Source: Takakia lepidozioides (lineage: Eukaryota; Plantae; Bryophyta). From it: a DNA stretch of 64,000 nt. The notes beneath the pieces were generated by a model, which saw nothing but the letters and a program-made list of their open reading frames with translations, made no database searches and was not told the DNA's origin. Location of the stretch: positions 2,604,001 through 2,668,000 of the forward strand of contig CM060731.1 in the NCBI GenBank assembly GCA_030704615.1, read 5' to 3'. Numbering within the stretch: position 1 is the stretch's first letter; every line of letters starts with the position of its first letter. The translations under genes were made by a program, and so were the position numbers. Shown here piece after piece: positions 1 to 59,281 of this stretch.

Positions 1-465
1 AGGAACCGATATAGGGAAACACCCCCATGATACACTAGCTGTAGGTCATGACTAATTGTTCTGAGCGGGAGGAGTACTTAGAGATATCCAACTCTTCTAT
101 CTTGGAGTATCCACCTCGGATAGCGAAGGGATGGGTGAGTAAAAGCCGCTCAACATTTGACGACCATACTGGGGAACTGAGTCAAGAACAACCAGATGTG
201 ACAGGCATCTGGTAGGATCATGGTGGATGGAGAATCAAGGAATTTGATGTGATCAAATTCCCTGTGAAACTGAGAAAGAAAGATTGTCCAAACAATTCTT
301 TCAGAGGTTCTTGGAACCGCCAGACGGTTGCAACGAAAATATTCTCAAGAGAGTGCATGATGCTGATCTAGAGTGGGGTTTGGAAAAATGAGTGATAAAC
401 CACTCCGCCGTGCCTCAGCCCCAGCCACCCCCCGCACACCACCTCTCGCCTCGGCCCTTGTAACA
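1..465. mobile_element. Possible LTR fragment truncating the 5' end of the family-A ParB-MTase gene
   Basis: Ends in TGTAACA (459-465), an LTR-like terminus, right where protein similarity to the family-B ParB exon begins. No other support. Confidence 0.25.
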
Positions 466-3400
466 GAGAACATCAAGCAGAGTTGGGATGCATGCTGGCG
501 GGAAGTGAACAGGGAGTTCGAGGCCAAGCTGTCCAAAAAGGCCTCGACAAAAGCGTTTATGGGAAAGATATTTTTTGTTTTGGACGGGAACCATAGACTG
601 CTTGCCTGGATGGATTACATTTCAAGCTTGCACTCAGACGAGATCGAATGGCATTGGAGCGTGGTTTCCATGGTACTCGATCAAAGGATGTGTCACGCAA
701 CTTTTGACAGCCATGCACGACATAAATAAGTAAGTTATCAACCTTGTTCCCACCCGATCTGCGCTTTTACACTTGGAAATTGTCTTATAAGTTGAAGGTT
801 TTTTTCAAGTCGAATGAAACCTCCCATGTGACGACCAATCTCTGCCACACTCTATTCCGTATCCAGAAGATAGGGTTGATGCCACTGGAGTCATTCACGA
901 ACATGCTCAGGCCTCAGCAGATGAAGAGGTGTGCTGAAAAGAAGACAAGCACATGGTACAGCCTAACAAGGGAGGCTTTTCTTGACTACATGTACACGGT
1001 AAGCTTCTTGACATCTATTTGTTTGTTGTCAGGGTGAATTTTTCCAAGAAACGCCTATGTTTGATTTTTTACATTGGTAATGTATGCAGCAAGAAATAGC
1101 AGAGACTGGCTTGAAGGCGAAAGCAGAATACTATGCATCCCACACAGAAGAGCAGAGGTCTGCAACTGGGCTTGAGGACATTATGAGATTTGAGATGAAC
1201 AATCAAAGGAAGAACAAATTCGCATAGCAGATCCAAGTCTAGGCACGGAATTTCTGGAGCAGGTGAAAGCACACTATGACAAGTATGGCTCCAAGCCAGA
1301 AATGACCCGAGAGAAATTGCATCGCCTTTCCATATCAATGGTGGACAATGCAACCAAAATCAGGTGGTTGGAGATCTGGAATTCGGATCCACTTGTGAGA
1401 GACACCAACATGTTCCCAACTCCTGAGAGGGACTCGAAAACACAAGCAATAAAAGTTGTGAGCGATCACACATTCGACCAGTGGCTGCACAAAGCAACCT
1501 TCTGGATCCAGGTAAGGCATTTGCAAAACCATTTTGAAATGATTGTGCACATTCGTGCTCTCTCCCAAATTCTTATGATCTTGCTTGCTGCAGTTGGAAA
1601 AACGAGCGGTGGCTGCACTTGGGGAGTCAATGGAAGACTACAAAATCCAGATGGCTCAACCCCGGATCACACTGGAGGCCTATATCAGGAGATGGAAGCT
1701 CGCTGTCTGGAACATCTACTTCTTCAGGGAGTTTGAGAGAAACAAAAGAATCTCCAGATCCCACGAATTCAAAAACCAGTACAACAGCGAGCAAGCAATG
1801 AAACGAGTGTTGTACATGTTTGACCTCCCAGAAACTGGTGTGTTGCTAGAGGTGTGTGTTTCAATATTCTTGTGTCATGTTTTCTATGGAGAATTTTGAA
1901 TTTGCAGGTCTCGAGGGAGTTCTGAGGGCTCTGGAAGTAAAGCCGCGCAACATTGCATCAACGCAAGCTTGTATCGCGGTTGCAATGCCCAGGTCTTGAT
2001 CTTCATGCATGTGTGGTTTTGGTTTCACTTGCCTGTACGTGGGGTCTCCAATGGTGTCGTTTTTTGCATTGTAGCCTGTTAAAGGGCACAAACCGCAAGA
2101 CAAATCAACCTTGCGTCAACGCAAGGCTGATGGAGGGCCATGGATATTTCAAGGGTCAGTAGGTTTTCCTGAATTATTTGGCTTTTGTTTGCTGTCGTTT
2201 CTTGTTCCGCTTCTACCAGGATGAACATGAAGTCTGTCTAGAGTGAAACGGTGTTTAGGGCTTATACTGTACCGCCAAACAGCCTTGCATTGACGCAATA
2301 TTGTTTGACAGTCTGGATTGCTAGATAGGGCCCACGGAAATCGCACAATTTCCATAATATTGTAGGGTAGTTAGTGTCATCAAACACCATGGATAGGTAT
2401 TTTTGGCAGAGGTATTCAACCTTGCGTCAACGCAAGGTTGAATCCCCATATGAACAAATCTTCGAATGGTTGTTTTCTAGCAATGTTTTCCATTTCTACT
2501 GTACGTGAAATCAACCTTGCGTTAACGCAATGTTGAATTCCACTGGTCAATCCCTGTCTTTTTTCATGCAACATTATCACATGTGGATCCGCCAATCAAC
2601 CTTGCGTCAACGCAAGGTTGATTGGGGATTCCAAGTTTTGCATGCGATGGATTGTGATAATGGACTTTTTCATCTGGTAAGTGTTCGTTGAAAGTGCAGT
2701 TCTCAACATTTGGGGATTTCCTTTTAAGCTCGAATCAACTTTGCGTCAACGCAAGGTTGATTCGGGCTGATAAATGTTCGTTTTGACGGGTTTATGATCT
2801 GCTTTCCAAAACCCTTCTGATGAGGTATGCTTTGTGAGCTGTTCAAATCGAATGACTGTCTGAGTTTTTGGTGTGTGTGAGTCAAGTACATGTATCATGT
2901 CCTCATACCGGGAAAGTACCTTAGCGATGACCCTGACTTCATCTACTCATGGGCTGACCCCTGCAATGACAAGACAATGTACACGGCTGGTATTGCCAGA
3001 GACTGGAGCAGGGCGCATTTCAGAGACTATGGGTGGTACCTCGATCTGCCAAAACAGGACACACCATTCGATGAAGTGGTTCTGAGAAACCTTAATGACA
3101 ACGCCGCGGCACTTGCCCCGCTTGCTGACAAAGACATTCAGGACAGAATCATTCAAGCTCTGGCTACAAAAGAGCCTGAGAAATCGGCTACTCCAAAACG
3201 GAAGGGGAAGATTGTCGGGGATCCGAAGGGGAAGGGGAAGAATGCAGCTACGCAGGAACAAGGCCCCTCACAGGGCGCTGAAAGACAACCTTCTCCAACT
3301 AGGAGGGATAAGAGAACACCAAAGTCGAGGGAGCAGCCTTTCGAGGCGAGAGAGCATCCATCCAGGGTTTTGGGCCAGTTCCACCGTAAGGTGGTGAATG

Positions 3401-4347
3401 AAAGTTTTCTGGCAATGATGGAATCCAGGAAGTCCACATTCAAAGGGGTGCTGTCAAAATCATGGGACATGCTTGTTTCGTTCCTTACTCAGGTAAGCAC
3501 ATATGTCTTTACTGTGGCATGAATGATTTTGTTTTGGCAACTCGTTTTGACTTAGCAACAAGATTGATTTCGTATTGGATTTTGATTAGGCTTGTGATAC
3601 TGTCTTTTGTTTTTTGGTACAGGTCACAAAAAGGCCGGATTGGGTGAATGGAGTTCAGCAGGCGTACGCGACTGACCTTGTGGTCCTGGACATTCCTGAC
3701 GGTTTGCCCGTCCCTGATGTGTTACCTTCCAATGCAACCCCTACTTGGAACAAATCGGATTCTTGTTACTAGCAGTGGGCTTTCTCATTCAGCAACAAAT
3801 TCCTTTCTGACTCAAGGGCTCTTCTTCTCATGCAGTCAAAGGACATGTCGGCACGGAGAACTCTTTTCAGCTACATGAAAGCTTCCGGGTTTCGCGTCAT
3901 CAAAACTTGGACATGCATCAACACCCTGCCTCTTACGAAGGGCGAGTTCCCGGGGCAGAAAGTGAGTTGGTTCCTATCAATGAAAGTTTCGTGCTTCTCC
4001 AGAAAGTGTCAAAAGTAGGTTATGTCTTTTTGCTCATGCTCTCTTCGAAATTTGTGGCAGACTCGGGTGGTCGAAGATTTGTGCCTGGTGAGGGTGCGGA
4101 AGGACACCCTTCCTCCTGGTATTGTTGAGTTCCAGTTGAGGGACCTTGCAGCTCACATTGACCCCACCTGCGAGCCTGTCGAGGATGATGTAATCTTCAA
4201 TTACGTGGACTCGGGTCGAACTACGAAAAGGTCGAATGGTGTCCCTTGGAGAGGTGCCCGGGAGAAATCCCCAGCTTTTATGCAGACTTTGGTGGAGACA
4301 TGCAGCCGTCACGGTGGTCGAGTAGTTGACTTGTCTATTGGCACAGG
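466..4347 (+). pseudogene. Family-A spliced gene: ParB/Srx-like domain fused to a beta-class N6A/N4C DNA methyltransferase-like domain (copy A1, truncated at both ends)
   Basis: Exons match the family-B protein: FFVLDGNHRLLAW (~570-610), SHVTTNLCHTLFRIQK, EKLHRLS, TLEAYIRRWK, WYLDLP, VVNESFLAMME, DLVVLDIPDG (~3675-3703; motif IV-like) and REKSPAFMQTLVETCSRHGGRVVDLSIGTG (motifs X/I). GT-AG introns. In-frame TAG at ~3770. Confidence 0.75.
1948..2764. repeat. Dispersed array of the 26-bp palindrome TCAACCTTGCGT-CA-ACGCAAGGTTGA (family-A site) in a long intron
   Basis: Good copies at 2105-2130, 2416-2441, 2511-2536, 2596-2621 and 2735-2760. Degenerate copies near 1948 and 2282. Spacers are unique and irregular. 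Confidence 0.9.
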
Positions 4348-7155
4348 TGGGGCCCTCACGGCAAGCGCGGGGAGGCTCATCTTTCTCGAGTTGAGCCTCA
4401 CCACGCCTAGCTATGGCGTCGTAGTGTGGATTCCCCATGGCGTGGGGTGCACTTGGCTTGACTTGTATTTGAGTGATGAGTTTATATATGCATGAGTTTA
4501 TGCTTCAGCTTTATGAGCTCGCATGAGCTTGTGCTTGTATTCTTCTTCTTTATCACTCGAGAAAGATCAGCTTGTATTTGTTAGTGCTAGATACGAGTTA
4601 GTTGTAGCACTTGTGGTTTTTGCTTGAGAATGAGAGAAATCAGGTTTGGATGCGAGGAGCGTCATCAAGTTCGTGGTTGTTAGGAGCAGAGGCGATGTGG
4701 GTTATGAGGTGGTAGACCTTGGCATTCGAGCTTCAGCTTCAGAGATGAAAGCACCATGCTGCAGGTAATTCCAGAGCACCTTGATGGTTCCAGATTGTGT
4801 ACATGCATGAGCAAGCACGATTGGGAAGAGGATCAGTCAAGAGCAGGTTATAGTGGCTTTGGTGGCAAAGTTGAGAACGGCCTTGGGAATGCGAGCTTTC
4901 ATTGTGTGAAGGATTGCAAGACCAAGCTAAAGGGCTAATTTGGCTTGGGGCAAATCAGTGCACTTTGTGGAGTATGTTGAGATTGGGTTTCAATCTCGAG
5001 CTTCAGCATTGAAAGGGCTCTTGCCATCGCAAGAGCAGGGCTAGAACAAGAGCTAAGAGGTGCGGCAAGGCCATGGAATGTGCACCTAGGGTTTCAGAGC
5101 TTGGAAGAAGAACTCTTGCACCACAAGAGGAGTGTCTTGTGGCTGGAAATGTAAGCCTTAGGGTTTCAGGAGCTTGGCAAAGGCTGTGGAGTGCTTAGTC
5201 TTGTCTTAGAGAGCATCAAGGAGCCAAGGACCCAAGATAGGAGGCTGATACCTCTTGTGTGAAGGGGTTGCATGGTGGAGCATGCATGCAGCCCATTGAA
5301 GCTTCCATCTTCAAGCTTGGAGGGCAAGCAAGGAAGAGGGAAGGGCTGATTTCTCTTATGTGAGGGCAATGCATGTGTGGAGCATGCTTTCAGCCTGTTG
5401 AAGGCTTGTACTTTCAGGTTTGGGGGTGCAAGAATGGAAGGAAGGGGCTGGTTTCCCTATAGGGCATGTGTGGAGCATGCCTTCAGTCCATTGGGCTTTT
5501 ATTTTCAAGCTTTAGAGAGCTAGAATGGAAGGGCTAGGGCTGGTTCCCACTTGGGTGAAAGAAAAGCACTTGTAGGGCATATGTGAGTTGGGGTTTCAAC
5601 CTCAAGCCTAGATAGAGCATGGCTCTTGAAGTGGCAGGTGTAGGGGGCTGGAATAGGCTCTAAGACACATGCTATGGCCAAGGAGAGCGCTTGAATGAGT
5701 GCTCACAAGGGCTGGAAACCAGCAAGGCTTGGTTGTCTGCCATTGAGTTTAGTGGTGTGTTTGGGGAGTCTAAGTGAGAAAGAAGGCTTGGTTTGTGGCA
5801 ACCATCTTCCTCATGGCTTAGGACTATTATTGGTGGTGTGTGGGAGCCGAAAGAGCAAGAATACCTTGCTGATTTCCTCATAGCCGCCATAGCTTGGTGC
5901 AAAGAAGCCTAGAGTCCAAGAGACACAAACCCTAGCTTGGCGTGGCCTGTGGGGCTGTGATGGGCTGTGCCATGTGGCCTTTGGGGCTGTGACAGGCTGT
6001 GACCTGTGGCCTGTGGGGCTGTGATGGGCTGTGACTGGCTGTGCCCTGTGGCCTGTGGGGCTGTGATGGGCTGTGACTGGCTGTGCCCTGTGGCCTGTGG
6101 GGCTGTGATGGGCTGTGATATGTGACCTGTGGGGCTGTGACCGGCTGTGATAGGCTGTGACAGGCTGTGGCCTATGATGCTGTGACCTATAATGCTGTGA
6201 CCCTATCACCTATGTAGGGCTGTGACAGGCTGTGACCTGTGGCCTGTGGGGCTGGGACAGGTTGTGACCTGTGGCCTGTGGGGCTGTGATGGGCTGTGAC
6301 AGGCTATGATCTGTGCCCTGTGGGGCTGTGATGGCCTGTGTGGGGCTGTGATGGCTGTGACCTATGGGGCTGTGGCGGGCTATGGCCTGTGGGGCTGTGA
6401 TGGCTATGACTGGCTGTGGCTTGTGGGCCTGTGATGGGCTGTGGGGCTGTGGCCTGTGTGGGGTTGTGACGGCTATGACCTGTGATTTGTGTGGGCCTGT
6501 GCTGGTCTGTGGTGGCTCGTGTTGACATGTGGACGGCCTGTGTTGACTCGTGGAGGCACTGGTGGACTGCCTGAGGACTAGCATGTGGTCTTGAAGGCCA
6601 AATTTTGAAGCTTGTGGAGGGCGGTTTGAGGAGTATCTTCATGATATTCCCATGGTCATGCAAGTGAAGGAAGAGAGGAGAGGAAGAGTGTTGGGATGAG
6701 GGCATGCTGGGGATAGGCATTGCTTTAGCTTCTCTTCCTCGTAGTTTTCTACCCTCTCATTAGGCCAAGACCTTTCCGTAGGTGGAGGCAAGAGTCAGTC
6801 CGGGTTTGGGCTGGGGTGTCCTTGCAGGAGCAACACCGTGGAGTTGTTTTTGATGTGGGGGAGTTGTCATTCTGATTTCTTGTGTTTGGATCCCCTCCAT
6901 ACCTACATGCTTGACTGTGCGCCATGTTAGTTTTGTGTGGGCGCTTGTTTTTATAGGTGATTGGTCCGGATTTGATCACCGGCCAGTCCTAGAGCATGCT
7001 GTCAATGGTGAGGCTGGGGTGATGACCAGTCAGACCATCATTGTTTCTCCTGTGGTGAGGTTGGAGGTGATGACCAGCCAACCATAGGAGTGCTTGCGGT
7101 GGATGCAGGTGCAGGTGTAGGTTATGTTAGGAACCTAGTATTCCAAACCGCAACA
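4348..7155 (+). mobile_element. Solo-LTR fragment (~2.8 kb) related to the LTR of the DNMT-bearing Gypsy element
   Basis: 6690-7155 is closely similar to 47568-48036 and both end in ...CCGCAACA. The 5' block GGCTCATCT...GTTGAGCCT is shared with ~45288. The left end looks truncated and no TSD is seen. Confidence 0.7.
5940..6500. repeat. GGCTGTG/GGCCTGTG-rich minisatellite inside the LTR
   Basis: Tandem degenerate units such as GGCCTGTGGGGCTGTGATGGGCTGTGAC. Confidence 0.9.
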
Positions 7156-8016
7156 GTGGGTTTTCTCCTTCAGCAACAAGTTCATTTCTGACGCTGGGGC
7201 TCTCGTCCTCGTCCAGGAAAATGATACGTTGGCTCGCAGATCTCTCTTCGCCTACATGAAGGCCGCTGGGTTTTGAGTCATCAAAACATGGATATGCATC
7301 AACTCCCTGCCTCTTTTGAAAGGAGAGTTCCCTGGACAAAAGGTGAGCCGTGCTTTTCCAATGGCATGTTAGAATTTCCTGTTGCATTCCTCGTTTTTTG
7401 TTTGCCTTGCATCACTGTTTGTGTGGGCTTCTTGCAGACTCGGGTGTTTGAGGCTCTGTGTCTTGTGAGAATGCGCAAGGACAGCCTCCCACATGGCATT
7501 GGTGAGTTTCAATTGAGGGACTTGGCGGCTCACATCGACCCCAGTTGTGACGCTGTGGAGGACGATGTTATTTTCAATTACGTGGATTCGGGGAGGACGC
7601 TGAAAAGGTCGAATGGTGTCCCTTGGAGAGGTGCGCGAGAGAAATCCCCAGCGTTCTTGCAGACACTCGTGGAGACATGCTACCGGCACGGTGGGCGGGT
7701 GGTGGACTTGTCCATGGGCACAGGTTGGATGTCTGTTTTCATCATGTTTTTTAGCTACAATGGCATCCATTTCGTCTGCTACAACATGTTCTTACTTTTA
7801 CTTATGGCTTGAATTACAGGGGTGTCTTTCCATGCCTGCAAGAGCGCGAGCAGACACTTCTTTGGCATGGAGGGGGATACAGAGCTCTTTTCGAGCAAAC
7901 TTGAGCGGCTGTCGTCGGGCTCAACATCTGCCCCCCAGACACAGGCGGTTTTGGAGGAGCCAGACGCTGCTGAGCCCGAAGATCTTGATGTGGACTCAGA
8001 TTTTGAATGTGAGTAA
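7156..8016 (+). pseudogene. Family-A methyltransferase-like C-terminal exons (copy A2)
   Basis: Diverged duplicate of 3773-4347 that continues further: REKSPAFLQTLVETCYRHGGRVVDLSMGTG, intron, then GVSFHACKSASRHFFGMEGD (motifs I-II of the N6_N4_Mtase fold) and an acidic tail. Confidence 0.75.
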
Positions 8017-8139
8017 GTCATGTTGATGGTCTTGTGTGCAGTTGTTTACTTGCGAGTCTGTAGAGTCTGCTGGAGAGGTAATTGGAATGGTATGCTGAGA
8101 GGACTGCTGCCGTGAGACTCATGAGATTCGTCTTGCAGG

Positions 8140-8562
8140 GTGCACTGGAGTGTTGTTGTCATCGACGTGCGGAAAGGCTGCTACACTCACATGAACTCCA
8201 TCGAGTCTTTGCATGGTTGCCCATATGTTTTGTCATGGATACGGAAGCTGCATGCGGAGTGTTTAGGCTACACTGTTGATTCACCGGGTTGGGAGGAGGT
8301 TAGGGCATTTTAGTTCAACCAGCCTGAAGTGCCCCAACAGCCATTCAGCTGGGAATGCGGGTTTTACGTCATGTCATTCATCCAAGGATATTATGAATGG
8401 CTACAAAGTGGGCATAATAGAACCTCTTCTAAAAGGGCAGAGAGAGGAGTACCTTTCACGAAACACTGGTTTACGTTCAAGTTTGCACTTGGCCAACGGA
8501 TGCAGTGTCTTAAGTACATCTTGACTGGTTTGACCGTTGCTGAGAAAGCAGTATCCTCATAG
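8140..8562 (+). pseudogene. Ulp1/C48-type cysteine protease remnant (typical MULE cargo)
   Basis: VHWSVVVIDVRKGCYTHMNS (catalytic His region) and PQQPFSWECGFYVM (Gln/Cys motif), frameshifted. Confidence 0.7.
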
Positions 8563-8698
8563 ATATCCATCTGGGCCCGAGATTAGAGGTGCACCATAGG
8601 ACACATTTGTCATGTAAGCATGCTTTTGAGCATTTGCAACGAAATAAAATATAACTTTGCATACACATCCTATTGGTCACATATGAGTGCAGTGTGGA

Positions 8699-10601
8699 GG
8701 GGAATGCTAGAGTGTGAGCCTAGCCACGCGAGCCCAGGAGCCTGTGAGCCCAAGAGCCTGACGTGAGCCCAGTCCACGTGGCACGAGAATGAGGGAAGCT
8801 GCAAGGTGTATTTCCCGTTATGCACCCATTACCGTGGAAACACGGCAAACATGACAAATCGGCAAATACAACAAACACGGCAAACCCTAATCCTAACCCT
8901 TAGCGAACTGCCATGTTCGTGAAGGGAAACAGGCTGGGAATTAAGGTGACGTCATTACAGCGGAAACACGGCAAACCGAGGAAACACTGCAAATCGTAAC
9001 CTCAAACCCTAACCCTAACCCTTAGCGAACTACCTTGTTCGCGGAGGGAAACAGGGCTGGGAATTAAGGGGGTGTAAGGCCCATGAGAATTCAAAAAAAT
9101 AAAAATAAAAATATTTATTTATTTATTTCCCGGCATTTGGATAGATGTCGTCGATGATCATCGTGAAATCAAGATCATGAAGAAATTGAGTGCGTTGACG
9201 CACTCAATTTCTTCGTGATCATCGACAACATCGACGACGGTGTTGTGCGGGTCCGGATTTTTACCTTGGGTACCCGGAGGGTTGAAAATAAAAATAAAAA
9301 AATAAAATAAAATATTGTTTTGTTTTTCGTCCCCCCCCACCCCCCCCCGCGGAGAACTGAGTGCGTCAACGCACTCAATTTCTTCATGATCATCGACAAC
9401 ATCGATGACGGTGCTGTGCCTGAAAATCCCGTTGGCGAAAAAAAGGTCCAAATAAGGCAGTTTTCGCCAAAAACTAGGGGTCTCAAACAGGTCCTCGCCT
9501 GTGGACCCATGGGAGGAGCACAAATGTAGCCATGGCGGGCCCCATGCAGGATGATCTGACGGGCCAGATGAGGAGTGGGTTCAGGATTGTGGGGCCTCCT
9601 CCGTTTCCCAAGGAGATGCTCGTCGCCGGTCTTGGGAGAACTATACACCTCATTTATACCAATTAACCTATGGTTTTCATATAGAATAGAAAGAGTTCAT
9701 TCGTCCTACGGTTTTCAACTATTTCTGCACTTCACCTTCTATTGCTCATCAACATCCATTTGATTCGCAAAATATGGCAAGGGTGGAAATGCATGTAGCC
9801 TACCAATTCGAGGAAAATTACCTAGAGTGGGCCACTTGCACTAGCCTACACCCAATATATATAGCCACTCCTACCCCTTTTCAAAATCCCTAAAAAAAAC
9901 CCTGGTTAGGGTCCGGGTTACCTATCCGGATCCGGACCTGTGCCATCACCAAAAACTCGGACCCTGACCCGGGTTCATTTTTAAAATGAACCCGTAATCG
10001 GACCCGGACGCGCCAGCTAGGTCCAGAACCCATTAAACCCGCTACTCGCGGGCCAGAGTTGGTATAGCCATCTTCCCTAGTTCACTAGTTGACTTTCTAG
10101 AGAGTTTTACTTTCTAGATAGTTCTACTATTGTTGGTGGGTTGAAAAACAACTCTCTAGTGGGTGTGGCTGTTGCAGGAGTATACTTATAAAAACAGTGA
10201 CCAGAGAAGGTTGGGGCTTGGTGAGAGTGGGGCCAAGTAGGATCACGGCTTGGGGCTTGTCTTCAAGGTGGAGCGCTTGGGGCTAGTGTAGGGTGGGACC
10301 AGCTGCGTGAAGTGCTTGGGGGTGGGAGTGCTTGGGGTTGACGAAGTAGGGCTGGGGGAATTGGGTCGATCGTCGTGCTTCTAAAGGGGACTCAATATTG
10401 CCGTGTTTGCCGTGTTTGGAAGTTTTGCCGTGTTCACCTCTTCTTCCAAAATATACGCTTCCACGGTAATAGGACCCCCTCTAAACCCTATCCTCGGTTA
10501 TAGGACTTGCTTCTCCATCCTCTAAACCCTGGGCTCATGCTTAGCAAGCGTGACCCAAGCTCCTGGGCTCATGCGGCTAGGCTCACGCCGTAGCTACGCT
10601 C
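8699..10601. mobile_element. Non-autonomous Mutator-like element (1.9 kb)
   Basis: 9-bp TSD CAGTGTGGA at 8690-8698 and 10602-10610. Imperfect TIRs GGGGAATGCTAGAGTGTGAGCCTAGCC / GAGCGTAGCTACGGCGTGAGCCTAGCC. Inner inverted blocks ATTACCGTGGAA and AAACACGGCAAA at ~8828-8990 and ~10398-10470. Confidence 0.8.
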
Positions 10602-10699
10602 CAGTGTGGAGTAGTCGTTGTAGACTTGTGACCAATTCACTGCATGTTGTTAAGCGGACTTACCCCTGCACACACAATCATTTTGTTTAACATACCAAG

Positions 10700-14187: not shown

Positions 14188-17100
14188 TCTGCCCCCCGGG
14201 GCTGTTTTTTTTTCCTTTGTGTTTCTTCGCCCCATCGCTTGTTTGCTTCTTCGCCCCCTTTTGTTCGCTCGCGCGCAGGTACCTGCCCAATCCCCCTGCG
14301 GGCTGTCAAAATGCAGCTCGCGCAAGGGGGTTTTTTTTTGTGTGTTTTGCTCGCCCCCTGACGTGTACTCGTCGTCTTGCCTGTTGCGCAGCTCGATTTC
14401 TCGTCGTCTTGCCTGCTGTGCAGCTCAGCTGCTTACTCTCTCACTCACTAAGTAAGTGCCGCGCCTACTTCCAATACAGCCCCACTAACGGCTATCTAAA
14501 AAATTGAGTTATGTTTTTTTTTTGCCTGTTTTTAATTGTTTGGTTGGTGGGTTTTGTTACACCAGCAGTCAGTAGCTCAGTTGGTTAGTGCACTGAGTGC
14601 CAGCCAGATTATTGTTTTTGTTACTTTAGTTAGTTTTGTTTGTTTGTTAGTTAGGGTTCAATTTTAAACTTTTTTATCTTAGCTAGTTTTGTTTGTTTGT
14701 TAATATGTTCTATGGTACCATCCCTATTTTTTTTGCTTCTTTTGAGGTCATGGGCATTTGTTTGCATTGTAGGCATGGCCCGGGATGAGGACAAGACCCC
14801 TCGTCGCCCTCCTTCCGGGAAGAAGAAACGACATGATAACCTGGATCTGCCCCCGCGCATTACTCGTTCGGCAAGGAAGAGAGGCGAGGTGGGTGCCTCG
14901 GCGGATGTTTCTGCCTCCCCACCCCCCGCGGCTGCTGGTCCTGCCTTGGCTAATATTGCTGCCCCGGAGTCCCCCGGCGGCAGGCCCCCCACCCCCCCGG
15001 CCGGTCCCTCCGGCAGAGGTAGGGCATACACCACCCGCATATCCCCGAATTATTCAGGAGGGCCCTAGGAAGGGTTATCTCGATATCCCGGATGGCCCTA
15101 GCCCTAATTCGCATATGAAGGCTGTCCTGGAACGTTCACGGGCAGCCGTGCTTGAGGCAAGAGAGAGGGAGAGGGTCGAGCGGACTTTGCGCCATGGGTT
15201 GGGGTCAGAGGTGGAGGAGGGTGGTGATGCTAGGGATAGTTCATCATGGCAACATGAGGCCGCCGCCGAGGCTGCGGCGGCAGCTATGTTATCTTTAGCC
15301 CCCGGTGGTGCGGCGCCCTCTCCCTCACATGTTCATGGCAGCACCGGGGGTGTCTCCACCTCGACCAGACGTCGTTTGGTGGATGCCGGAAACCTCTTGC
15401 CAACTTGGAATGCCGCCTCTCCCACCAAGAAGGCGGCGCTCTTGGCGCAATAGGGCATTCCCATTACGGCGACCGTTGCCTTTGACCACCAGGTAAATAT
15501 ATCCTATCCAGATTTGTTCTTAGTTTTTCTCATCTTTTTTGAACTTGTAAATTTTAGAAGATGAATAAATTAGGTGGTTGATTCTACTGGCATGTGTTTA
15601 ATTTGCAGGGTTCGGCCTCCTTTAGCTCAATGCAGAGTTACACGATGGGGGCACGGCCCCTAGAGGTCCCACTTGTCATTGATGAGGGGGCTAGAGAGAG
15701 ACGCATGCAAAGAGAGAAAGAAAGTGAGGATTGTTGAGAAGGGAAAAGGCCTATCATTAGAACCCCCAAAGAAGAAAAAGAGGCCTTGCAAGGATGTCGT
15801 AGAGTTGAGAGATGTACGGGTGGGGGAGGGCACTAGTAGTCAGCCCAATGTGTTGGGAAATACAAGTGGGGTTAGTGGGAAGAACTCTGATGTGGTAGCG
15901 CCCAGAAGTGGTAAGGGAGGGAAGACCAAAAAGCGCAAAAAGAGGGGAGAGAATGTTGTACTTCAGATCCCACCTTTAGAGGTGAACCAATTTGGATATC
16001 CTGTGGGGGAATTTTGGGAGGTCATGAAGAAATATGCCTTCCCAAAGGTAGCTAGGTGGTTCCCTTGGCATGTGGAGTGGACCCAAATTCCGTGGGTGCA
16101 TCATAGAGAGTTTGTGGATGAGGTAGAAAATGTCTTTGGGGGTCATTGGAATGAGACCCGGTTGATGGGGCTGATCAGGAAGAACATGAGGGACAAGTGC
16201 GAGGATGGAGATCCAAAACGCAACAAAGAGGGGGCTCGTTCCCAAGAGGCCTCCAACCTGTTCGCAGGTATGCCATCTCACTCGTCTCTTGTCTTTCCAT
16301 TGTATTTCCCCCCCCCCATGTGTAAGCCTCTTCATGCATGCTTTCATGTATATGAAGAACTAATAAATGAGGATGGATGCCTAGAGTCTTGGGAGATCCT
16401 CATTGCCGAGGAGACTAATGGCGAGAAGAATCCGAAGTTTGCTCGAGGTCGTGAGGCAGCCACCCTCCGCCTAGAGAAAGGGGATTCCACGCACAAATTT
16501 GGCCCCGGAGGAGCCAAATTGTTCGCCACCCGCTTTGTAAGATCTTCATTCCCTATCGATTTTGTTTTTTTGTTTTTTTTCTTCAAGTATGTTTTCGCTA
16601 ATCTTCTCTATCTCTTTCTAATGCGAATATTTTATTTGTTTATACTCTTGTGAAGACAAAAAAGTTTGGGAGACAACCCTCCATTGAGGAGGTGGAGTAT
16701 GCCAAGATCCATGGGTATGTGGGCCTCGTTACACGAATGAAGGCATGTAAGATGCTCAAGAACAGGAGGAGGAAGAAGAGGTTGTCCTCTAAGGTTCAGC
16801 TAGGTACTGAGGGTGATGACGGGGAGAACCACGATGATGAGAGTGGCGATAGTGAGGATAGTGAGAGTGATGATAGTCATGTGAGTGAGACGGACACCGA
16901 CGGTGATGGTGATGACGATGGTGTTGACGACAATGATGCAGCTAGTGAGGGATCTAGCCCCGAGAGTTTGGAGGGCCAAGGTGAGTAGTAGGGATGATGT
17001 ACACGATCTTTTCAGGTCAATTTTCATGTATATATGTATATACGCATGCGCATGATGTGGTGCTCCCACAATCCCAAATTCCCTAAACCTAAACCTAGCC

Positions 17101-17997
17101 CTAAACTCACAATCCTAATCCAGGCCTCAAACCTTGGTGCGACCTCCCAGGCGTCGCAAATCTACAAAAGAAAAGAAACCAGACCATCGGGGGCTGCCCT
17201 AAAATTCTATTTGAAATAAAGCGTCGCAGGTTTAATGCGACGCCCAAAGCGTCGCAGATTGGGGCCACCATAATATTGTTTTTTAAAAATAAACCGTCGC
17301 AGGTTTACTGCGATGCACAGGATGTCGCAGATGGGGGCCACCCTAAAATTTGATTTGAAATAAAACCGTTGCAAATTAACTGTGACGCGTCTGCCGTCGC
17401 ACATTGGGGCACGTATTGGGGCCCCCAAAACCGTCGCAGTATTACTGAGGTCGCAAGCAGGGCACCTATATATATATAAATAATAAGCCGAAAGAAAAAA
17501 CAAAAAAGAATTTCAATTACCCGAAAGGCGTCGCAGTTTTACTGCGACACATCAGACGTCGCAGGAATGGATTAAACAAGAATATTTTATAATTAACAGT
17601 AATTATTTAAAAACTTCAAATAAAATGCGTCGCACGGAAAAGGCGACGCCCGGTACGATGCAGCGGGGAAGCGACGCACAGGGCATCGCTCTTGAATGCG
17701 ACGTTGTGCACGTCGCATGCCAGGCGGTGCATGCTTGAACCACATGCGACGCCGAGGTCGTCGCATGTGTTACCGACGTCAGGCGCGTCGCAACACTTGG
17801 GATCCTGGGTGGCGCAATCTGCGACCCCCCTGGCGTCACCTTAAGTCCGGAATCTGCGACACCCCCATAGCGATGCATTTGCGACGCCAGAGGCGTCGCA
17901 GATTTGCGATTTCCGCCGGGGTGGAAATCCACGATTAGCGTCGCCTGGGGCGTCGCTAGCGCCCCCCCCCCCCCCCCCCCCGCAAAATGGTGTAGTG
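14188..17997 (+). mobile_element. CACTA element fragment (ORF2 plus right end)
   Basis: Dense GTCGCA/TGCGAC subterminal repeats at 17140-17960, a poly-C tract, and the terminus GGTGTAGTG at 17997. Confidence 0.65.
14775..16988 (+). pseudogene. Multi-exon CACTA ORF2/TnpA-like gene
   Basis: EVNQFGYPVGEFW...ARWFPWHVEWTQIPW...VENVF resembles the conserved block of plant En/Spm ORF2 proteins. Low-complexity N-terminus, acidic C-terminus, stops present. Confidence 0.5.
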
Positions 17998-22879: not shown

Positions 22880-23709
22880 TCACGTTGTCAATGGGACTTC
22901 GACTGCTCTCAGAACTAGCTCATGAGTCATGGGGCTCCTCCATGTAAAGTCGATTGCAGCCGTTGTACCGCCCCTAGTGATGTTCACCACAATGTCCTGC
23001 CCTTCAATCATACCACCATCGAATATGGAAATCTTCACGTTTTCGTCGTCCACACCAATGCGAATGTCCCCATACAATGGAGAAGAGGAGCGCACTCCTC
23101 GAGGAGAATAGGTCTCTCCGATGGAGTCCACCCACGTCCAGTGGCAGCAGTTCCACCGCAACAGCATAGCAGTGCGCCTTCTTCTGCATGGGTGACCGTC
23201 GTAGCTGGGAAAATCGGAATCGAGGATGCGCAGGAGCCACGGACTCCTCAGACCAAGATCGTCACCCCGCTCGAAGGCGTAGTGGCCTACGATATACTCA
23301 AAAGCCACCAATGTTTCCACAATCGAACCAGTATCTTCTGTGTAATCTGTGTACCAGATAACAATGTCTCCCGATGTGGCCGAATACATTGCATAATCGA
23401 TGCCTCCAAAGGGGCAGTCGTCCCGGTTCCGGAAGCACGGCATCCTTGCAAAGGAGGACCTGAGGACGACTTGGATGCCGATGACCTTGCGGACAGCTAC
23501 GAAGCCCTTAGATTTTGGAAATGATACGAAGCGGAAGAGCAGTCCGGCCTCCAAAATGGAGCATCTGGGTCACACGTACCCACCGACGGAGGTGGAACGT
23601 GTTCATCACGCCAGCGGTGGATGAAGCCATACATCTTTCTCATCAACAAGTTATAGTTTGAGATTTGCCACCGAAGTCCATCCCCCCGGATGGAAATTCG
23701 GCGCCGCAT
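22880..23709 (-). pseudogene. Cargo ORF of unknown function, weakly OTU-protease-like
   Basis: 224-aa ORF plus an upstream frame. IRGDGLRW, PFGGIDY and LLRWNCCHW occur in OTU motif order, but no catalytic Cys follows GDG. Confidence 0.25.
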
Positions 23710-24820
23710 TTACATCGAAGAGGGGATGGACTTCGTCGTGTCCAGTGGCTATCGGCCCACCTGGCAGTGACTGCCCATAGTTTGCATGGCAGGGTAGGAA
23801 ACTGAAACGGCTACATTCATGCAGCAGCCAATCTTCATCGGTCCAGGATCCTGTACGGGGGAAATTTAAATGTGCCCTGGAGTGTGCCCTGGAATGTACC
23901 TCACTTCTGTATGACTGTGTTTCATTGTGTTGAATAACTCTCGGATTTGGCCCACTGTTTACAATTTGATGTCTCATTTCTACAATTTGTCTGTCTGGTT
24001 GAATAAAGCAGAGTAACCGGTATGTGAGTCATGTGTCAAGAATATACCAGAGTAACGCCATGTCGGACATTGAAATGCGGCACCGCATTTCCATGTCCGC
24101 ATCGAAATGCGGCACCGCATTTCCATGTCGGACATCGAAATTCGGCACCGCATTTCCATGTCGGACATCGAAATGCGGCACCGCATTTCCATGTGGGACA
24201 AGAAAATGCGGTGGATCATTTCCGTCCAGGTACACGAAATACCAACTCGGGTCTATAAATTGATCAGAAAACGAGGTTGGCATTGCAAATGCGGCGACGC
24301 ATTTCCAGATTGGCAATGGAAACTTCTTTTTGGACAAGGGAATGCGGTGCCGCATTTCCGTCCAACACTTCGAAAAGTGCACCTATTTCCGACCAGCGCG
24401 ATGGAATGCGTTACCGCATTTCCGAGAGAGGGTCTGCAAATTGACAAATTGCGATGTCCGTTCTGGAAATGCGGCGCCGCATTTCCATGTCCGTCATCGA
24501 TTTTTTTTTTACAATGGAATGCGGTGCCAGTTTTTGCTGATGGGTCTGCAGTTCGAACAACCACCATCCCCAATATGGAAATGCGGCACCGCATTTCCAA
24601 TCCCGCCATGTCGGCCTCCTTGTTCGACCTCCTTGTTCGACCTCTGTAAGCGTGGTGGCATCCATGCAATGAGCGGGAGAGGCCAAAACTGGCGTGTGGA
24701 CAAAGGAAATTTTGGAAATGCGGCACCGCATTCCCAATTCAGATTACTTTTTACTATGCCAACATTGAAATGGATAAATTAGTCCCTCCCCTGTTTTGGA
24801 AATGCGGTGCCGCATTTCCA
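23692..24820. repeat. Family-B palindrome array GAAATGCGG-NN-CCGCATTTC (left arm)
   Basis: About 13 copies, four in ~33-bp tandem units (24072, 24104, 24137, 24170) and the rest dispersed. Confidence 0.95.
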
Positions 24821-25007
24821 AAAGAGGTTCTTAGAGTTGCCAAAATTTTGGAAATGCCCTGACCCATTTCTGATTTTGGGAGCGTCCTGGTTTGGGCGAT
24901 TGTGTGGCTGGAATGCACACTGGAGAGGGGTCACGAATGTCGGGCAGAATTTTCTTTATATACTCTGGAAGAGAATTTACATTTACAGAGACTTCATTAA
25001 AATTCTA

Positions 25008-28000
25008 TTAATCTTGAAAATCATCGGAATCCTCATCCTGTTCTAGACTGTCCTGCTCCTCCTCCACCCCCTCAGTGCCTCTCTCATCTCCAGCGGACTG
25101 CTCGTTGGCCAGGCTTTCGAAAATCCCATCTTCCCCTTGCGGAACTGTCCATCTCACCTCCGTTGGGTCGTCCTCCTCCCTGTCTGCGTCGCTCTCATCC
25201 GCTGAATCACATATGTACTTTCGTACTCGTCTACCTGTCTGAGCTGCTGCCAACTCTTTCCTTATCCTTCTGTCCTCCCTAGCCCTCTCCAAAATCTGCT
25301 CTACTTTACTGGGATTCTCACTTCTTCTAATCGCTGTATTTGCGAGTTTAGCTGCATAACTAGGAAGGGAGTAGTCCCTCACCGGGCTCGTCATGAAGTC
25401 GGCCCTCGCAAAGAACGGGACATTCTTCCTGGCAGGAAGTGTAGGCCCTACATGTTTCGACCCGGACCCTGCAATCCTGCACATGACAATCATCAACGAG
25501 ACTAATGAGAACCACAGTCGGGAAATTCCTTTGACATAAATGACCCAGAAGGCTTTGCAAACTTACAATGTTTGCACTCACTCGTATTCCGGGTTCTCCT
25601 CTGCATCAATGTCCACTGTGTCTTCCTCGGACTCCGACGAATCCGAGGAGACTTCCGCTCTGTCGGGAGCCTTCACATTCCGTTGCAGCCCCTCCAGATG
25701 GGATCCCCACACGGATGAATCCTCCTCGTAGGCAAAGAGGTGCCGGTCGGAAAACCGCCCAGCCCACATTGAGGCACCTGTTACAATGCCATCCACACAT
25801 TACCACATGGCGCTTCAGATGTTGCGAACTACATTCTAACGAGAATTTGCAGAACAGCAGAGATCAAGATTCTGCATACCTGTCCCACAGATGAGGTCCA
25901 GCACTGTGCCCTCCACGTCTGTGCATGTCTCCATAATTGTCTGAATGAAGGCAGGGCTCCGAGTCCGTGAGTACCGCAGGGGTTCCGTTGAAGTGAGGCT
26001 ATGAGGGAGAAGTTCCTTGGGAACGTTGTTGAACAGAACGTCGTAATCGAGTGGGTCGCAGTTCGGGTCAACCTTTCCTCCCTCCTTCCGGAAAGCAAAG
26101 GTGGAGTTTTCCTTCACAAAGCAGTATGCATCGAACTGCTTCGTCTGCATACACAGGGGGAAAACGATTAGAAACCGAATGCGGCACCGCATTTGAAAGC
26201 ACCCAAGCAAATAAATGGACGAGTGCCAGTGTCGTAATCACCTTCTTCCCTTCCGACCGAAGGCCCAGTGTGTTGATGCACGTCCACTTCTTTTTCAGAA
26301 TCGGGACGGCGCTCTTGCGGGTCCACTTCGCAATTCCTGTCTGAGTGTTTTTTCCTCTGCTCGCCAGGACAACCACACAGCCTCTGTCGTCCAACACCAT
26401 GCGGGCAAGCCCGAATCCTTTCTTCCAAAAGTCCTCCGAGTACCTGTTCCAAGATGGCAAAGCTTGCAGTCCTTCCACAGGCTCTCCGTCCGGAATATCC
26501 AAGATGATCATATCGCAAGACCACTCGGTGGCATTTCCGCCCCTCCTACAATCCTTGTCTGCACACACCCTCTCAAAGAACGAGACCATATTCTGAAATC
26601 CTGGGGTGTCGGAAGGCTCTTCGGCAGTCGCCTTCTTCAGTGCTCTGCCCTTCAGACCCTCCATGGTCTTCATGTATGCCAACTTGGCTGCCCGTCCATC
26701 CAAAGCCGCCAAGAAACTCTCATTTACACACTGGACTACAGTTTCGGGAGCCACTTTCGGCCTCTTCATTTCCACCGGCTCGAAAGGGTGCCCCCCTGGG
26801 GGGTTGAAGAGTGCCTTCTTTGCCGAGCCAGTTCTCGTGCCTCTGGTGACAACGGTGGGCACAGGGGAGGCAGCCTGCGTTTGGGGGGGTGGGCTGGTTG
26901 CAAAGTCTCCATCGGAGTCCTCTTCCTCACCCTCTTCCTGAACAGGCTGTTTCTGCTTCTTCGTTTTGGCGGGTGTCACAACAGCTGCTCCTTGCTGGCG
27001 AGTCCTCTTCTTCGACCCCTTCTGTTGGGCCTGCACAGCTGCATCCACCGTCTTTTGTGCCATCTCAGCTGCCTTTCTGGATTCTTCCAGAGCAGCAGAT
27101 TCCTTTGCCGACTTTGGCCCAGCAGGGACACGTCTTTCCTTTCTCTTCTCTTCTGCCAAGGCGTGCAGATCTTTCTCAGACTCGTCAACAATACCGCCAG
27201 ACATGTCCAGGTACCACGGGCATCCAACGAGATGCGCGGGATGCCATTGTTTCTGCATCTCGGGTGTGTAGACACAGCTTGGGCCCGCCACGGTCCAAGC
27301 CATGAAGAACGGGGGCTCTTGAGCGAGGGCCCCTGTCTGAAGGAGCACGTATTTCATATACCTGCAAGGCAGTCAGCATGCGTGAGCAAAACTTGAGACC
27401 AACCTACTGGCAGAGTGCCACCGAAAACATAAAATGCGAATGCGGTGCCGCATTTCCGAGACAAACCTCGTAACCAGGCTTCGCATACAAGGGCAGCTGT
27501 GCTTCACCTAAACAATTCGCATTGCAGCTTTCCCCGCTCCCTCCTGATGTGTAAACTCCACGCTCCTTCTTGCTGTCTGTAGCTCTCTGGCGAAAAGGTT
27601 GTCCTTGTACGCACATCTGAAACGTGTCACGTAGTCTTCCAATGTCTGTGTTCCATCCCATTTGACGTACAAGCCGAACGAATTTGTGTGCATTACGACT
27701 TGCTCCTTTGCATTCGACATTACCTGCGATTCCCAAATGCATTGTCACGTAGCAGTTCAGGGAATTCATGTCAGAAAAGCAAATCTGGGGAAGTACCTTG
27801 AATTACCTGGAACCACCAAGTCATACGGTTGAGCCACACATCCACTGCAGGGTCGGAAACTTCCAGTGGAAAAGACCACATTGTCCTTATGCTCTCGGAT
27901 GCATTCCAGATCGACAGCCACCGTGTCTGCCATTTCCGATCCAATGTCAGTGGCTGGAAGAGAGTGGCTATTGCTAGGAAGGAAATTCAGTGCATTGAAA

Positions 28001-29275
28001 CCTCACCTTCTCTTTCGCCTCCACACATGCCGTTGAGAGGTGATGCAGTTTCTCCAATTGCATGGTCGGCTGCATGGCCCGAGAATAGTGTTTTGCAATC
28101 TCGGGGATGAAGTCCTTTCCAAGTGCCGGATCTGCAATTGCCACCAGCTTCACAAGCTTTGACTTGTATTTGGTTCTGGACTTGACACCGGCTTCCTTCA
28201 AGTGCTCAGTCAATGACTGCAACGTTTTGACCTGCCCCTCACTTTCCATGAAGAAGCGTTTGGCATGGGCCAAATCCAGCTTGATGTTTGACTGCCAACA
28301 AAAACATGCAGAAGAGTTACATTCGATTCATAAGGAAACATTACTGGAAATTGGGGAAGGATGAGCAGAGGGAATTGGAGCACGACTTACTTCGTATATC
28401 ACCTCCACCATTCCATCCATAGTGAGACGATACCATGTCCGGTCTGTTTTTGCAACGGCTTTCTGAATGAGCTCCGGCTCCAGCATTTCCGCAAACATCT
28501 GCGGATCAGTAAGACCAGTTTTCCTCACCCTGTACAGCATATGTGCCATGTGGGTATGCACGTACGCATTCTCAGTGACCCTGCAAGGCACACTCTCCAG
28601 TTCAGTACACGGAAGCACGGAATCAAACCAGAATGGAAACCGAAATGCGGCACCGCATTTCGAATGTGCTAGGGAGGGTATGAGTATCTTACGAGTTGAG
28701 GTCCGCCATGGCATTCTTGAGGAGGGAGGAGTCTGCCGCCTTCACCTTGAGGATGACACACTCCACCATGTAATGCCAGCCAATGTGCTTGGCATGGTTC
28801 TGCTTGATGTACTCCCACCAGGCGAGAAGTCGGTGATTCCCGTCCCACACAAAGAACATTTTTCCCGACATATGGCCGAAGTCGGGATCACCCTTCAGCG
28901 TCGCCTCGAATTCGTGGTTGCGAGTGTGCCAGTGGGTATCCCACGTTGACAATTCATCGGCAGTGGGTCCACGGGTTTCGCCGTCCTCATTCTCTATGGA
29001 AACGTAAAACGCTGCCGATCCCAGACGGTACCCTTCTCAAAATGCAAACTTGAGCTTATCCACATCTCCGGGAAGGGCCTGCCTGACGATGGGAAGGGAG
29101 ACCATGCGACAGAGTGGGATTCGAAGAGTCCGCTGGAATACCCTGCTGCCCAGAACTCTGCCAATGCTACTGTGTGTCTCCTCCAACATTTTATCCGCTG
29201 CACTTTTGAAATCCTCCGGAGACATGTCTGTAGGTGCCGGTAGTGGCTGAGCAGCTGGAGCATCCTCAACTGGAG
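25008..29275 (-). pseudogene. Family-B spliced gene: ParB/Srx-like domain plus beta-class N6A/N4C methyltransferase-like domain (copy B1, 5' end deleted)
   Basis: ParB-like: IPLCRMVSLPIVRQALPGDVDKLKFAF*EGY...FFVWDGNHRLLAW. MTase-like: CDMIILDIPDG...FWKKGFGLARMVLDDRGCVVV, RSPAFIQTIMETCTDVEGTVLDLICGTG, intron, ASMWAGRFSDRHLFAYEED. Intron positions are shared with family A. Confidence 0.8.
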
Positions 29276-29500
29276 CTGTCAGGAGATGTTATTTCGTCGC
29301 CGAATCGGCCATCATTGTCCTACTCACTGGCTATGGAATCAAACCTCCCACCTTCATGCATGTAGCTTGAAACAATACTTTCCACTTCAATGTGCGACTT
29401 CCAATTGTCGATGGACTCCGCAGATCCACTTAGATGGTGCCTGTGAGCCTTGGTCTCTCGCTATACTGAACCTCGCACTTGCCAACTCCGTGCGGTGTTC

Positions 29501-32500: not shown

Positions 32501-33103
32501 GGCATACAGACAATGCCAGAGGCTCCCCCGGTGTGGCCGGTGGAACCAGGCTGCGATCTGAGTCAGGTTGAGGCCGACGCCCTTACCGCCGCAGGATTTC
32601 GGATGGTGCAGCGCACTGACGTGCCCAGACATCCATTTCCGCTTCCACAGCCTCCACCACCGACCCCTGAGAGAGCAAGAACAATGGGACACGACAGCTC
32701 TAAGCATCCTACACACCGTTGGGGGAAACCGAAGAGGCGGCGACCTCCCTCAAAAGTGAACGAGACAAGGATGGGGAATGCACTTCGGATGAACTGTACA
32801 ATCCAGAGCTCGACAGAAGTGCCCCCACCAGGATTCGGGCGTGTGTATCAGATGGCCACGGCGGGCTCAGCTGTTCGCAATGAGGTGTACACCATCACCA
32901 TTTCAGAATTACCCACCTGCAATTGCACCGACTTCCAGATCATGGCGAACAAGGGGGCATCATACTGCCCTTGCAAGCATTTGTACTACGTGTACCTAAA
33001 GAGACTCCGTTGTAATTCCACAACTCATCACTTCATACATGCACCAGGGTTGAGCCCCCAGGAGGTTCACACTCTTCTGAATATGGATCCAGGGGACCAG
33101 TGA
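29501..33103 (+). pseudogene. MULE DDE transposase with N-terminal GCM/WRKY-like Zn domain and C-terminal SWIM (copy B1)
   Basis: CAGKLRCLNPTC...CAHC...HVGVHCHP; WVMFDHIKR, FMADNAQAN, CGFHW and TNMAESVH (D-D-CxxH-E); CNCTDF...CPCKH (SWIM). One intron at ~31592-31674 and a few frameshifts. Confidence 0.85.
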
Positions 33104-38122: not shown

Positions 38123-38749
38123 GCAACATGTTCTGCATTCAAGTCTCCTAGCATTCAGTCTAAGAAATTACAGAAGCAAAATGGGGGGTTCGGTGCTCAA
38201 TCAGCTGCCGCAGCCCGATCGCATGGAGCTCTCACTGGTGGCTGGGGTACTGAGGGGCTGCTGCTCGGAGATGGCAATCTCCTCCTGTAGACGCATCTGC
38301 TTCCTCCCCTTCGGCAATGGCCTACGTCCGAGAGTATAATTTCCGGAGCTTGCGACGAGGTCTCCTGTCTGGTGCACGAACTCCCCCCCTCTCAGGTTCG
38401 AGCATAAGAAGAACAGAGAGAGGGAAAAGGGGCAAAGAGTGCAGATGGAAAGGGCGCGAGAGGGGTGACTGAGGAGACACGACAAAAGTAGATGAAACGG
38501 CGGTGAATGCACCACTGGGTCCGAAAGGGTTGGACGAAAGGTCTCATCGTGGACTTTGCGTCATTACGAAAATTCGAATCGTTCAGGGTACGCCATGCCG
38601 TCCGAAAAACAAACATCATTATCAACGGTCAGGCCGCGCGCCTCATGCCCTTTCAGTCAGATAGAGTGCCGACATGTGCAGCAATTCCGTTGCTCCACGT
38701 GTTCACATTTCAAGGCATTTCCGTCCCAGCGTCTGATGAGTTGGAGCGA

Positions 38750-59255: not shown

Positions 59256-59281
59256 TCTCCGTTGCTCAGCCATGCACAAGC

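Follow-up and report, generated by a model that had tools for sequence, protein, structure and literature searches.

Palindromic sites that vary with their ParB-methyltransferase-like genes in probable Mutator-type plant transposons

Among plant transposons, the Mutator-like VANDAL group carries family-specific motifs in introns, between genes and in terminal DNA that is non-coding, and these are described as co-evolving with the accessory protein VANC (PMC5735166). The text of the Bostrychia paper refers to VANDAL/VANC as the only transposon system known to bind and modify its own sequence. A comparable arrangement is described here from a 64,000-nucleotide stretch of the moss Takakia lepidozioides (assembly GCA_030704615.1, contig CM060731.1, positions 2,604,001 to 2,668,000 of the forward strand), called the window below. 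The window is rich in transposons, about 50% GC, and has GT-AG introns. Within it, A (positions 466–8016) and B (22417–45237) appear to be two plant Mutator-type families, each with a helper gene encoding a predicted ParB-like clamp and a methyltransferase (MTase)-like domain, and each has its own palindrome. As in VANDAL, a family-specific motif in non-coding DNA changes with the accessory protein. The published VANC motifs are 8–9 bp long and in one orientation, whereas the sites here are two-fold symmetric and 18–28 bp long; binding and demethylation were shown for VANC, whereas here the protein has a predicted ParB and MTase fold and binding is a prediction. No accessory family of plant transposons turned up in the Pfam scans, and the fold matches point to ParB.

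ParB-type helpers have previously been proposed from single algal families. The Ectocarpus element Sola1-1_Ec32 has a ParB-MTase helper gene, and self-binding was proposed for it without a test (PMC12477816). It resembles the present elements by its description but is one Sola family in a brown alga, compared with a Mutator group in a land plant here, and the word “palindrom” is absent from its main text, in which no comparison of sites with proteins was noted. In red-algal Plavaka elements, PAG3 combines ParB with a 2-oxoglutarate oxygenase and PAG2 combines an N6A MTase with SET, and homologues are reported in Chondrus Mutator elements (10.1101/2025.02.11.637652). In Plavaka, too, a ParB-like accessory gene adjoins tandem inverted-repeat arrays across families, with self-binding proposed but untried; unlike here, the ParB part is fused to the oxygenase, the MTase is a separate gene, and the text consulted neither lists the repeat sequences nor relates them to a protein tree. 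Iyer et al. (PMC4738411) describe an MTase family fused to ParB and helix-turn-helix domains in chlorophytes and chytrids, from a different MTase group. In the open literature searched, supplements excluded, no land-plant description and no comparison of sites with a protein tree was found. What is new is a large land-plant family with site switching family by family; the helper design itself was reported from algal transposons in 2025.

An earlier note on this DNA held that A and B each have their own palindrome, that neither site is found in the other element, and that the two proteins align exon by exon. All three points are borne out. The A palindrome, TCAACCTTGCGT-NN-ACGCAAGGTTGA, is 26 bp long and has seven copies in a single intron, spanning 1947–2760 (starts 1947, 2105, 2279, 2416, 2511, 2596, and 2735); the scan covered positions 1–8700 with up to 6 mismatches, and 100 shuffles gave no copy. 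Chance would predict 0.12 copies of the word TGCGNCANCGCA in the window, which has 21. When 20-mers with up to 4 mismatches were counted across the window, there were seven A sites in the first A gene copy (A1), none in B and one in a separate element, C, while every one of 40 matches to the B site fell within B. A third site, TTGAGTGCGT-CA-ACGCACTCAA, is present in element C at 9179 and 9356 and has a 12-bp core in common with A. The window sites are non-coding and confined to their own elements, with flanks mostly unconserved beyond about 11–14 bp from the centre. The A and B genes are homologous and intron-rich. Ten B gene blocks match region A in the same order by tblastn, with E values of 1e-17 (the DGNHR exon), 7e-12, 7e-9, 6e-8, 3e-3, 7e-8 (WYLD/NESFLA), 2e-10 (DIPDG), 3e-14 and 5e-15 (SPAF..ETC), and 4e-7; 175 of 522 aligned residues (34%) are identical between the two proteins.

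The same note had reduced both sites to TGCG-N-CA-N-CGCA. A common core does exist, in the form CG-[G/T]-NN-[A/C]-CG, but neither the CA centre nor the TGCG flank is universal: other families use TTCGG, CTCGG, or GTCGG in place of a TGCG-type flank. The centres of 34 B sites are CG (9), CA (10), TG (12), and TA (3), and those of 214 sites overall are TG (85), CA (76), CG (31), TA (7), and other (15). Such a mixture, mostly TG and CA, is as expected if a central CpG, or an old fixed CA, has decayed. The arms still have their CpGs in 12 of 14 A half-sites and 62 of 68 B half-sites, while at the centre CA or TG mostly stands in place of the CpG.

Relatives of the helper gene are numerous. Named homologues are found in the liverwort Riccia sorocarpa and the ferns Adiantum nelumboides and A. 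capillus-veneris, and a profile of two ParB exons yields 453 clusters at 50% identity (E ≤0.001). The loci compared below are the best 80 of 197 from a metagenome contig scan, which collapse to 45 distinct loci (here given L numbers). The scan pattern, F[FY]V[WY]DGNH, biases this sample toward such members, and few hosts probably account for many of the loci. The majority are decayed and AT-rich, and their gene blocks follow the order seen in A and B. One short peptide pattern had 16 matches in prokaryote genomes and 100 in viral contigs, none confirmed as relatives, and a word-based search of longer proteins with the ParB exon of B gave no match.

Finding site arrays in these loci required tolerance for CpG decay; a count of exact palindromes was swamped by AT repeats. 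A de novo palindrome search with such tolerance found arrays far above the level in shuffled sequence, and the counts per locus used 15 candidate arms drawn from searches of this kind. At least three palindromes lie near the gene in 27 of the 45 loci, so homologues do carry arrays, as had been anticipated. They are mostly 450–1,700 bp upstream of the gene, with some intronic or downstream. Listed by protein-tree clade, the primary arms are AACTTTCGG, TACTTTCGG, TACTCTCGG, AACTCTCGG, and TTCTCTCGG; outside these five main clades they are AGCATTCGG in L003, GAAATGCGG in B, and ACCTTGCGT in A, and L002 and L011 have single TGTCGG-AT sites. Three clades also have a second palindrome, CCGAGCT-NN-AGCTCGG, whose outer letters depend on the clade and whose copies are interspersed among the primary sites. 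It was seen upstream in L008, L016, L022, L023, L025, L043, L044, L059, L062, L070, L074, L075, L078, and L080, and arms of this type resemble the outer arms of the primary site. The clade of L013, L051, L068, and L076 has a site array with a 51-bp period about 2.4–2.7 kb downstream of the ParB exon, in the intron that precedes the MTase exon; the intron used by both A and B has no array in this clade. Repeats of AATGGCCAC with a 25-bp period, found in L041, L063, and L068, were set aside as an unrelated satellite.

The A sites all lie in one block (1820–2885), and this might be a nested insertion of a small transposon, in which case the site would be foreign to family A. The block has an 8-bp direct repeat, GTACATGT, on either side, its sequence runs from TTGAC to GTCAA, and it has no proper AG acceptor; contig coverage in sequencing run X1 is lower across 1885–2512, contig depth being a weak measure. 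However, the block is exactly at a phase-2 intron common to B, L001, L023, L051, L053, and L056, and the direct repeat lies in sequence coding for Tyr-Met-Tyr-Met. Relatives also retain a site in the same intron, with a palindrome scoring at least 10 in the orthologous intron of 12 of 22 loci (A and B included) whose proteins are 26–55% identical. Another copy of A, on a contig of 9,055 bp from a sequencing run labeled as a different species, matches A over 457–3657, with the intron, at about 95% identity (159 differences, 38 gaps) and has three more A sites about 390–700 bp upstream of the gene. Since the homologues have their intron at the same codon, and the other copy has both the intron and upstream sites, the A sites are taken to belong to the element, and an origin from a nested transposon seems extremely improbable.

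Site and protein were compared across the family. The protein tree was made with FastTree from concatenated blocks of mostly decayed copies, and has weak support among some clades. As a guard against circularity, 31 loci in the five main clades were rescanned with the inner 7-bp core only, and the two outer letters were then read off. Among the 20 loci with at least three sites (11 were dropped, and a TA/TT tie in L021 was scored as TA), the five motif states require just four changes on the tree, which is the minimum; shuffled motif labels required a mean of 11.8, and none of 5000 shuffles was as low as 4. Mantel tests, with consensus arms taken from preselected patterns, gave rho 0.72 for 27 loci (p 0.0002) and 0.51 for the 24 left without the window elements and L003 (p 0.0002). 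Motif type therefore tracks the protein tree, and the array count and tree match together support the proposal that protein and site diverge together in each family. The match is one of co-inheritance plus concerted site change rather than of binding, sites and gene being carried on one element.

Kin share labels, so agreement with the tree is not by itself proof of co-evolution. Three features exceed what plain descent would give. Within one element, sites at unrelated positions carry the letters of its clade; at the orthologous intron site both arms have the clade letters in the TACTCTCGG (3 loci) and AACTCTCGG (2 loci) clades; and the outer letters AA, TA, and TT each recur in separate clades. 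Tandem duplication and palindrome self-correction could be behind part of this pattern. Taken further, the palindromes might be a neutral by-product of local duplication, self-correction, and descent with the element. Template switching is known to perfect near-palindromes, and tandem arrays are indeed present, with a 32–33 bp period at B 24058–24211 and a 51-bp period in the four loci noted above. Set against this, the seven A sites are irregularly spaced with mostly unrelated flanks, single sites stand isolated in three separate B introns, the orthologous-intron site has been kept in 12 of 22 loci despite the low protein identity, and the CG-[G/T]-NN-[A/C]-CG core persists across those families. 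A purely neutral origin is thus considered rather unlikely.

The protein encoded beside the sites has ParB-like features. Single window exons matched no ParB or MTase family in Pfam, and sequence searches of solved structures were uninformative. Both A and B have GNHRLLA, matching GxxRxxA, the arginine motif of ParB, Noc, and KorB; among the homologues collected, DGNHR occurs 106 times and EGNHR 18 times. One full-length Riccia member, P0153, is 1,207 aa long, and a fold was modeled for the N-terminal 672 aa of another Riccia member with 72 sequences (mean predicted local distance difference test score, pLDDT, 74.6, with the core mostly >85). The top 12 Foldseek rows for this model are ParB or Noc. 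In a structure search over 48,161 chains, KorB, PadC, the ParB-N domain, and sulfiredoxin (Srx) ranked first; on realignment ParB, Noc, and KorB had Z scores of 7.6–8.9 over the CTP-binding and DNA-binding domains, and sulfiredoxins 4.2–5.6. For the N-terminal ParB/Srx fold, 7bm8 gave Z 8.9 (root-mean-square deviation, rmsd, 2.4; 100 residues aligned) and KorB Z 7.8 (rmsd 2.8, 95 aligned). The whole of 6sdk (199 residues) could be aligned, to model residues 148–518, but at an rmsd of 9.1, and the DNA-binding domain alone (6s6h) gave Z 4.5.

The likeness to ParB/parS, Noc with its binding site NBS, and KorB (6sdk, 7bm8, 7ng0, 8qa8) is in the predicted order of parts, a CTP-binding fold followed by what would be a helical DNA-binding domain. 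The protein here differs from bacterial ParB in being eukaryotic, encoded by an intron-rich, transposon-borne gene, and in its long helical insertions and fused MTase-like domain; no ParA partner was seen here, and the arginine motif has the form DGNHR. ParB-type relatives are reported to read different palindromes through a few interface residues (PMC7383237). In the present proteins, the candidate recognition helix gave no simple code linking residues to bases. An ESM Atlas search with P0153 residues 165–680 gave only sub-threshold fungal DUF3723 look-alikes (score 0.85), for which Pfam gives no support. DUF3723 may itself be a ParB-like protein, and no paper was found that names DUF3723 together with ParB.

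The C-terminal part had been labeled an MTase. This stands for the beta-class fold and the order of motifs and not for the catalytic motif, which is altered. The Pfam family N6_N4_Mtase (PF01555) was found in 14 of 17 Riccia members, with E values down to 2e-7 and scores below the curated cut-off for the proteins shown, and a low-confidence model (mean pLDDT 44) has CcrM, M.HpyAVI, and PvuII among its top fold matches. As in these beta-class enzymes and the rotifer N4CMT, the catalytic-motif position comes before the S-adenosylmethionine-binding motif, which is partly kept. At the catalytic position, A and B have DIPDG, and 28 of 33 motif matches among stored proteins, including those of Riccia, have D[LM]P[ST]G; variants include one DVPFG, and DIPEN in L001. 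The second proline and the aromatic residue of the beta-class consensus, (D/N/S)PP(Y/F/W), are absent. Marchantia DN4MT1, by contrast, is described as having TSPPY (10.1101/2021.02.12.428880), while almost all members here lack the aromatic residue. With DIPDG or D[LM]P[ST]G in place of a DPPY-type motif, the domain is likely to be non-catalytic or altered rather than a canonical writer of N4-methylcytosine (4mC) or N6-methyladenine (6mA). That it has been kept in liverwort, fern, and metagenome copies suggests some function.

Judged from these comparisons, the palindromes are probably the helper protein's own binding sites, with a dimer as their reader, and would change throughout a family as the protein's specificity drifts. 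Each family palindrome would then be the likely binding site of its own helper, with a protein dimer reading the two arms as ParB reads parS, and the helper might load and spread with CTP. When specificity shifted, all sites of the family would be replaced, in both arms. The purpose is likely to be anti-silencing or autoregulation: by analogy with VANC in VANDAL elements, the helper would keep the element transcribable and mobile despite cytosine methylation by the host, or else, like KorB, it would regulate its own promoter. A bolder version, doubtful as it stands, would have a large Mutator radiation in seedless land plants, with a load-and-slide system of bacterial style at work in the nucleus, in which a CTP-gated ParB clamp loads at a private palindrome and carries an MTase-fold module along its own element, there either to set a private 4mC or 6mA mark by altered chemistry or to block host 5-methylcytosine.

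Several observations weigh against the helper as reader of the sites. Because sites and gene are inherited as one, some agreement on the tree would arise even without co-evolution. The intron site of the TTCTCTCGG clade is a half-updated hybrid, with one old-type arm (4 loci), and a near-identical candidate recognition helix, K[DE]HYS[AT]FCKH, is found in three clades that differ in their outer letters. Eighteen of the 45 loci have fewer than three sites, most of them with little flanking DNA; L004, L015, and L009 have 3–10 kb of upstream DNA with no array there, and L032 and L035 show only the (related) second palindrome type. A B-like transposase was found in just 8 of 21 loci with at least 4.5 kb of upstream DNA, 7 of them head-to-head. 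CpG depletion does not mark these elements as protected: CpG and CHG observed/expected ratios are 0.16–0.51 in long terminal repeat (LTR) DNA, 0.53–0.72 in parts of A1, 0.68 in the B gene, and 0.93 in one Gypsy stretch. The predicted fold is that of a Riccia homologue, not of A or B itself, it has no Foldseek match at E 0.001, and its rmsd to ParB, Noc, and KorB is 8–14 Å when both domains are included.

Element B (22417–45237) shows how sites, helper gene, and transposase are arranged. It has inverted ends flanked by a 9-bp target duplication, AACCTCACT, at 22408 and 45238, as in Mutator and Mutator-like elements. The ParB-MTase-like gene (25011–29290, minus strand) has single B sites in three introns (26177, 27438, 28643). 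Arrays of the B site, GAAATGCGG-NN-CCGCATTTC, are found downstream of the gene at 24058–24823 and upstream, between gene and transposase, at 38750–40270, the latter only in the duplicated half. The transposase (29500–33100, plus strand) is head-to-head with the helper gene; read by eye, it has D..D..CxxH..E and a SWIM-type zinc finger, presumably the Mutator transposase pattern, and its pieces gave no Pfam match and no meaningful NCBIfam match. As with the algal ParB-MTase accessory genes, a ParB and amino-MTase fusion of about 1,100–1,200 aa head-to-head with a transposase is seen in element B; Riccia P0153 has 1,207 aa. B also has an internal partial duplication, with 25767–33952 repeated in 33953–45237 at 93–96% identity. 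The second half has many small indels resembling long-read errors, and the 5' part of the helper gene and the upstream array survive only there; the duplication may be an assembly artefact. An unknown gene in the left arm (22883–24028, minus strand) has no Pfam match and no usable ESM Atlas match.

This arrangement bears on whether the palindromes belong instead to the Mutator transposase, as internal or subterminal enhancers, with the ParB-MTase gene merely travelling along. The sites are in the same element as the transposase, and element C, without a helper gene, retains two long palindromes; a 2026 preprint describes transposases as themselves activating sequence-specifically (10.64898/2026.08.24.746577). 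The arrays, however, center on the helper gene, lying 450–1,700 bp upstream, in introns, or downstream, and not on the element ends. The big arrays of B are 1.6 kb and about 5 kb from its ends, with two or three sites near the right end, and a transposase role for the sites appears improbable. Even less likely is a host transcription factor family that binds the sites while element families drift among the words it tolerates. Sites are promoter-proximal and intronic, and one factor could suit the shared CG core, but they occur nowhere else in the 64-kb window, in one genome A and B have markedly different arms of 9–14 bp, and a ParB-fold protein, the natural reader, is encoded beside them.

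Element C (8700–10602), of Mutator type and 1.9 kb long, has inverted ends and a target duplication of 9 bp, AGTGTGGAG. It has no ParB-MTase gene, and its two long palindromes (9179–9214 and 9356) combine the 12-bp core of A with different arms. One of them has perfect arms of 17 bp. Element C may derive from a third family, or the protein of A may serve it in trans.

The region 466–8016 had been read as a single family A gene, and this did not hold: there are two broken copies, A1 and A2, with LTR-type DNA between them. A1 (457–4356, plus strand) is cut by LTR-type DNA at both ends and damaged by frameshifts near 681, 799, and 1212, a stop at 3770, and an acceptor at 2885 that ends in AA; a copy in another sequencing run carries additional letters at 681 and 1212 and lacks one at 799. 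In A1, an exon at 457–729 holds the core of the ParB/Srx fold, FFVLDGNHRLLAW, and three exons at 792–1817 encode a helical middle region, the predicted counterpart of the ParB DNA-binding domain. The phase-2 intron with all seven palindromes (1818–2885) is enlarged, at about 1,070 bp versus about 90–230 bp in relatives, and corresponds in position to B intron 27507–27362. Next come an exon (2886–3492) in which a low-complexity linker separates the WYLD and NESFLA blocks, and the beta-class amino-MTase-like exons (3623–4346, with DIPDG in 3623–3961 and VVDLSIGTG in 4061–4346), all on the plus strand. From 4357 to about 7135, outside the gene, is an LTR-type retroelement fragment with a tandem repeat, absent at this point from another copy. 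A2 (7140–8016, plus strand) consists of the last three MTase-like exons, 74.7% identical to A1 across 584 nt, and the 20-mer search found no A site within its preserved part. Element A has lost both ends to LTR-type DNA in the window; downstream of A2 is a fragment of an Ulp1/Peptidase_C48 gene (8125–8559, plus strand; E 3e-4 and 3e-3). No RNA runs were listed for region A. One contig, its run being RNA by guess only, reads from where the second MTase exon ends into sequence resembling the next exon, a weak hint of splicing only.

Other features of the window were noted, the first two of them by eye. A Ty3/Gypsy-like retroelement appears to have a stretch resembling a C5 cytosine methyltransferase before its reverse transcriptase (about 50900–51950) and a PHD-like finger after its integrase (55200–55410). 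Two CACTA-type ends at about 14190–17990 have arrays of short subterminal repeats like GCGTCGCA. Two related Gypsy-like elements face each other at 51592–59612, forming a 3-kb inverted repeat of 80% identity, and a pentatricopeptide-repeat gene at about 63000–64000 is the only host-like gene noticed.

Where single algal families were available before, the elements described here provide a matched series of proteins and candidate sites, and with two divergent candidate pairs of protein and site, A and B, in one genome, the idea of self-recognition becomes directly testable by cross-binding. Were the CTP-gated clamp model true, hundreds of families would form a natural library of orthogonal protein-site pairs. 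If self-recognition is confirmed, these helpers would be a source of orthogonal DNA-binding pairs, and plant transposons would have a second system of this kind, assembled independently and out of bacterial components.

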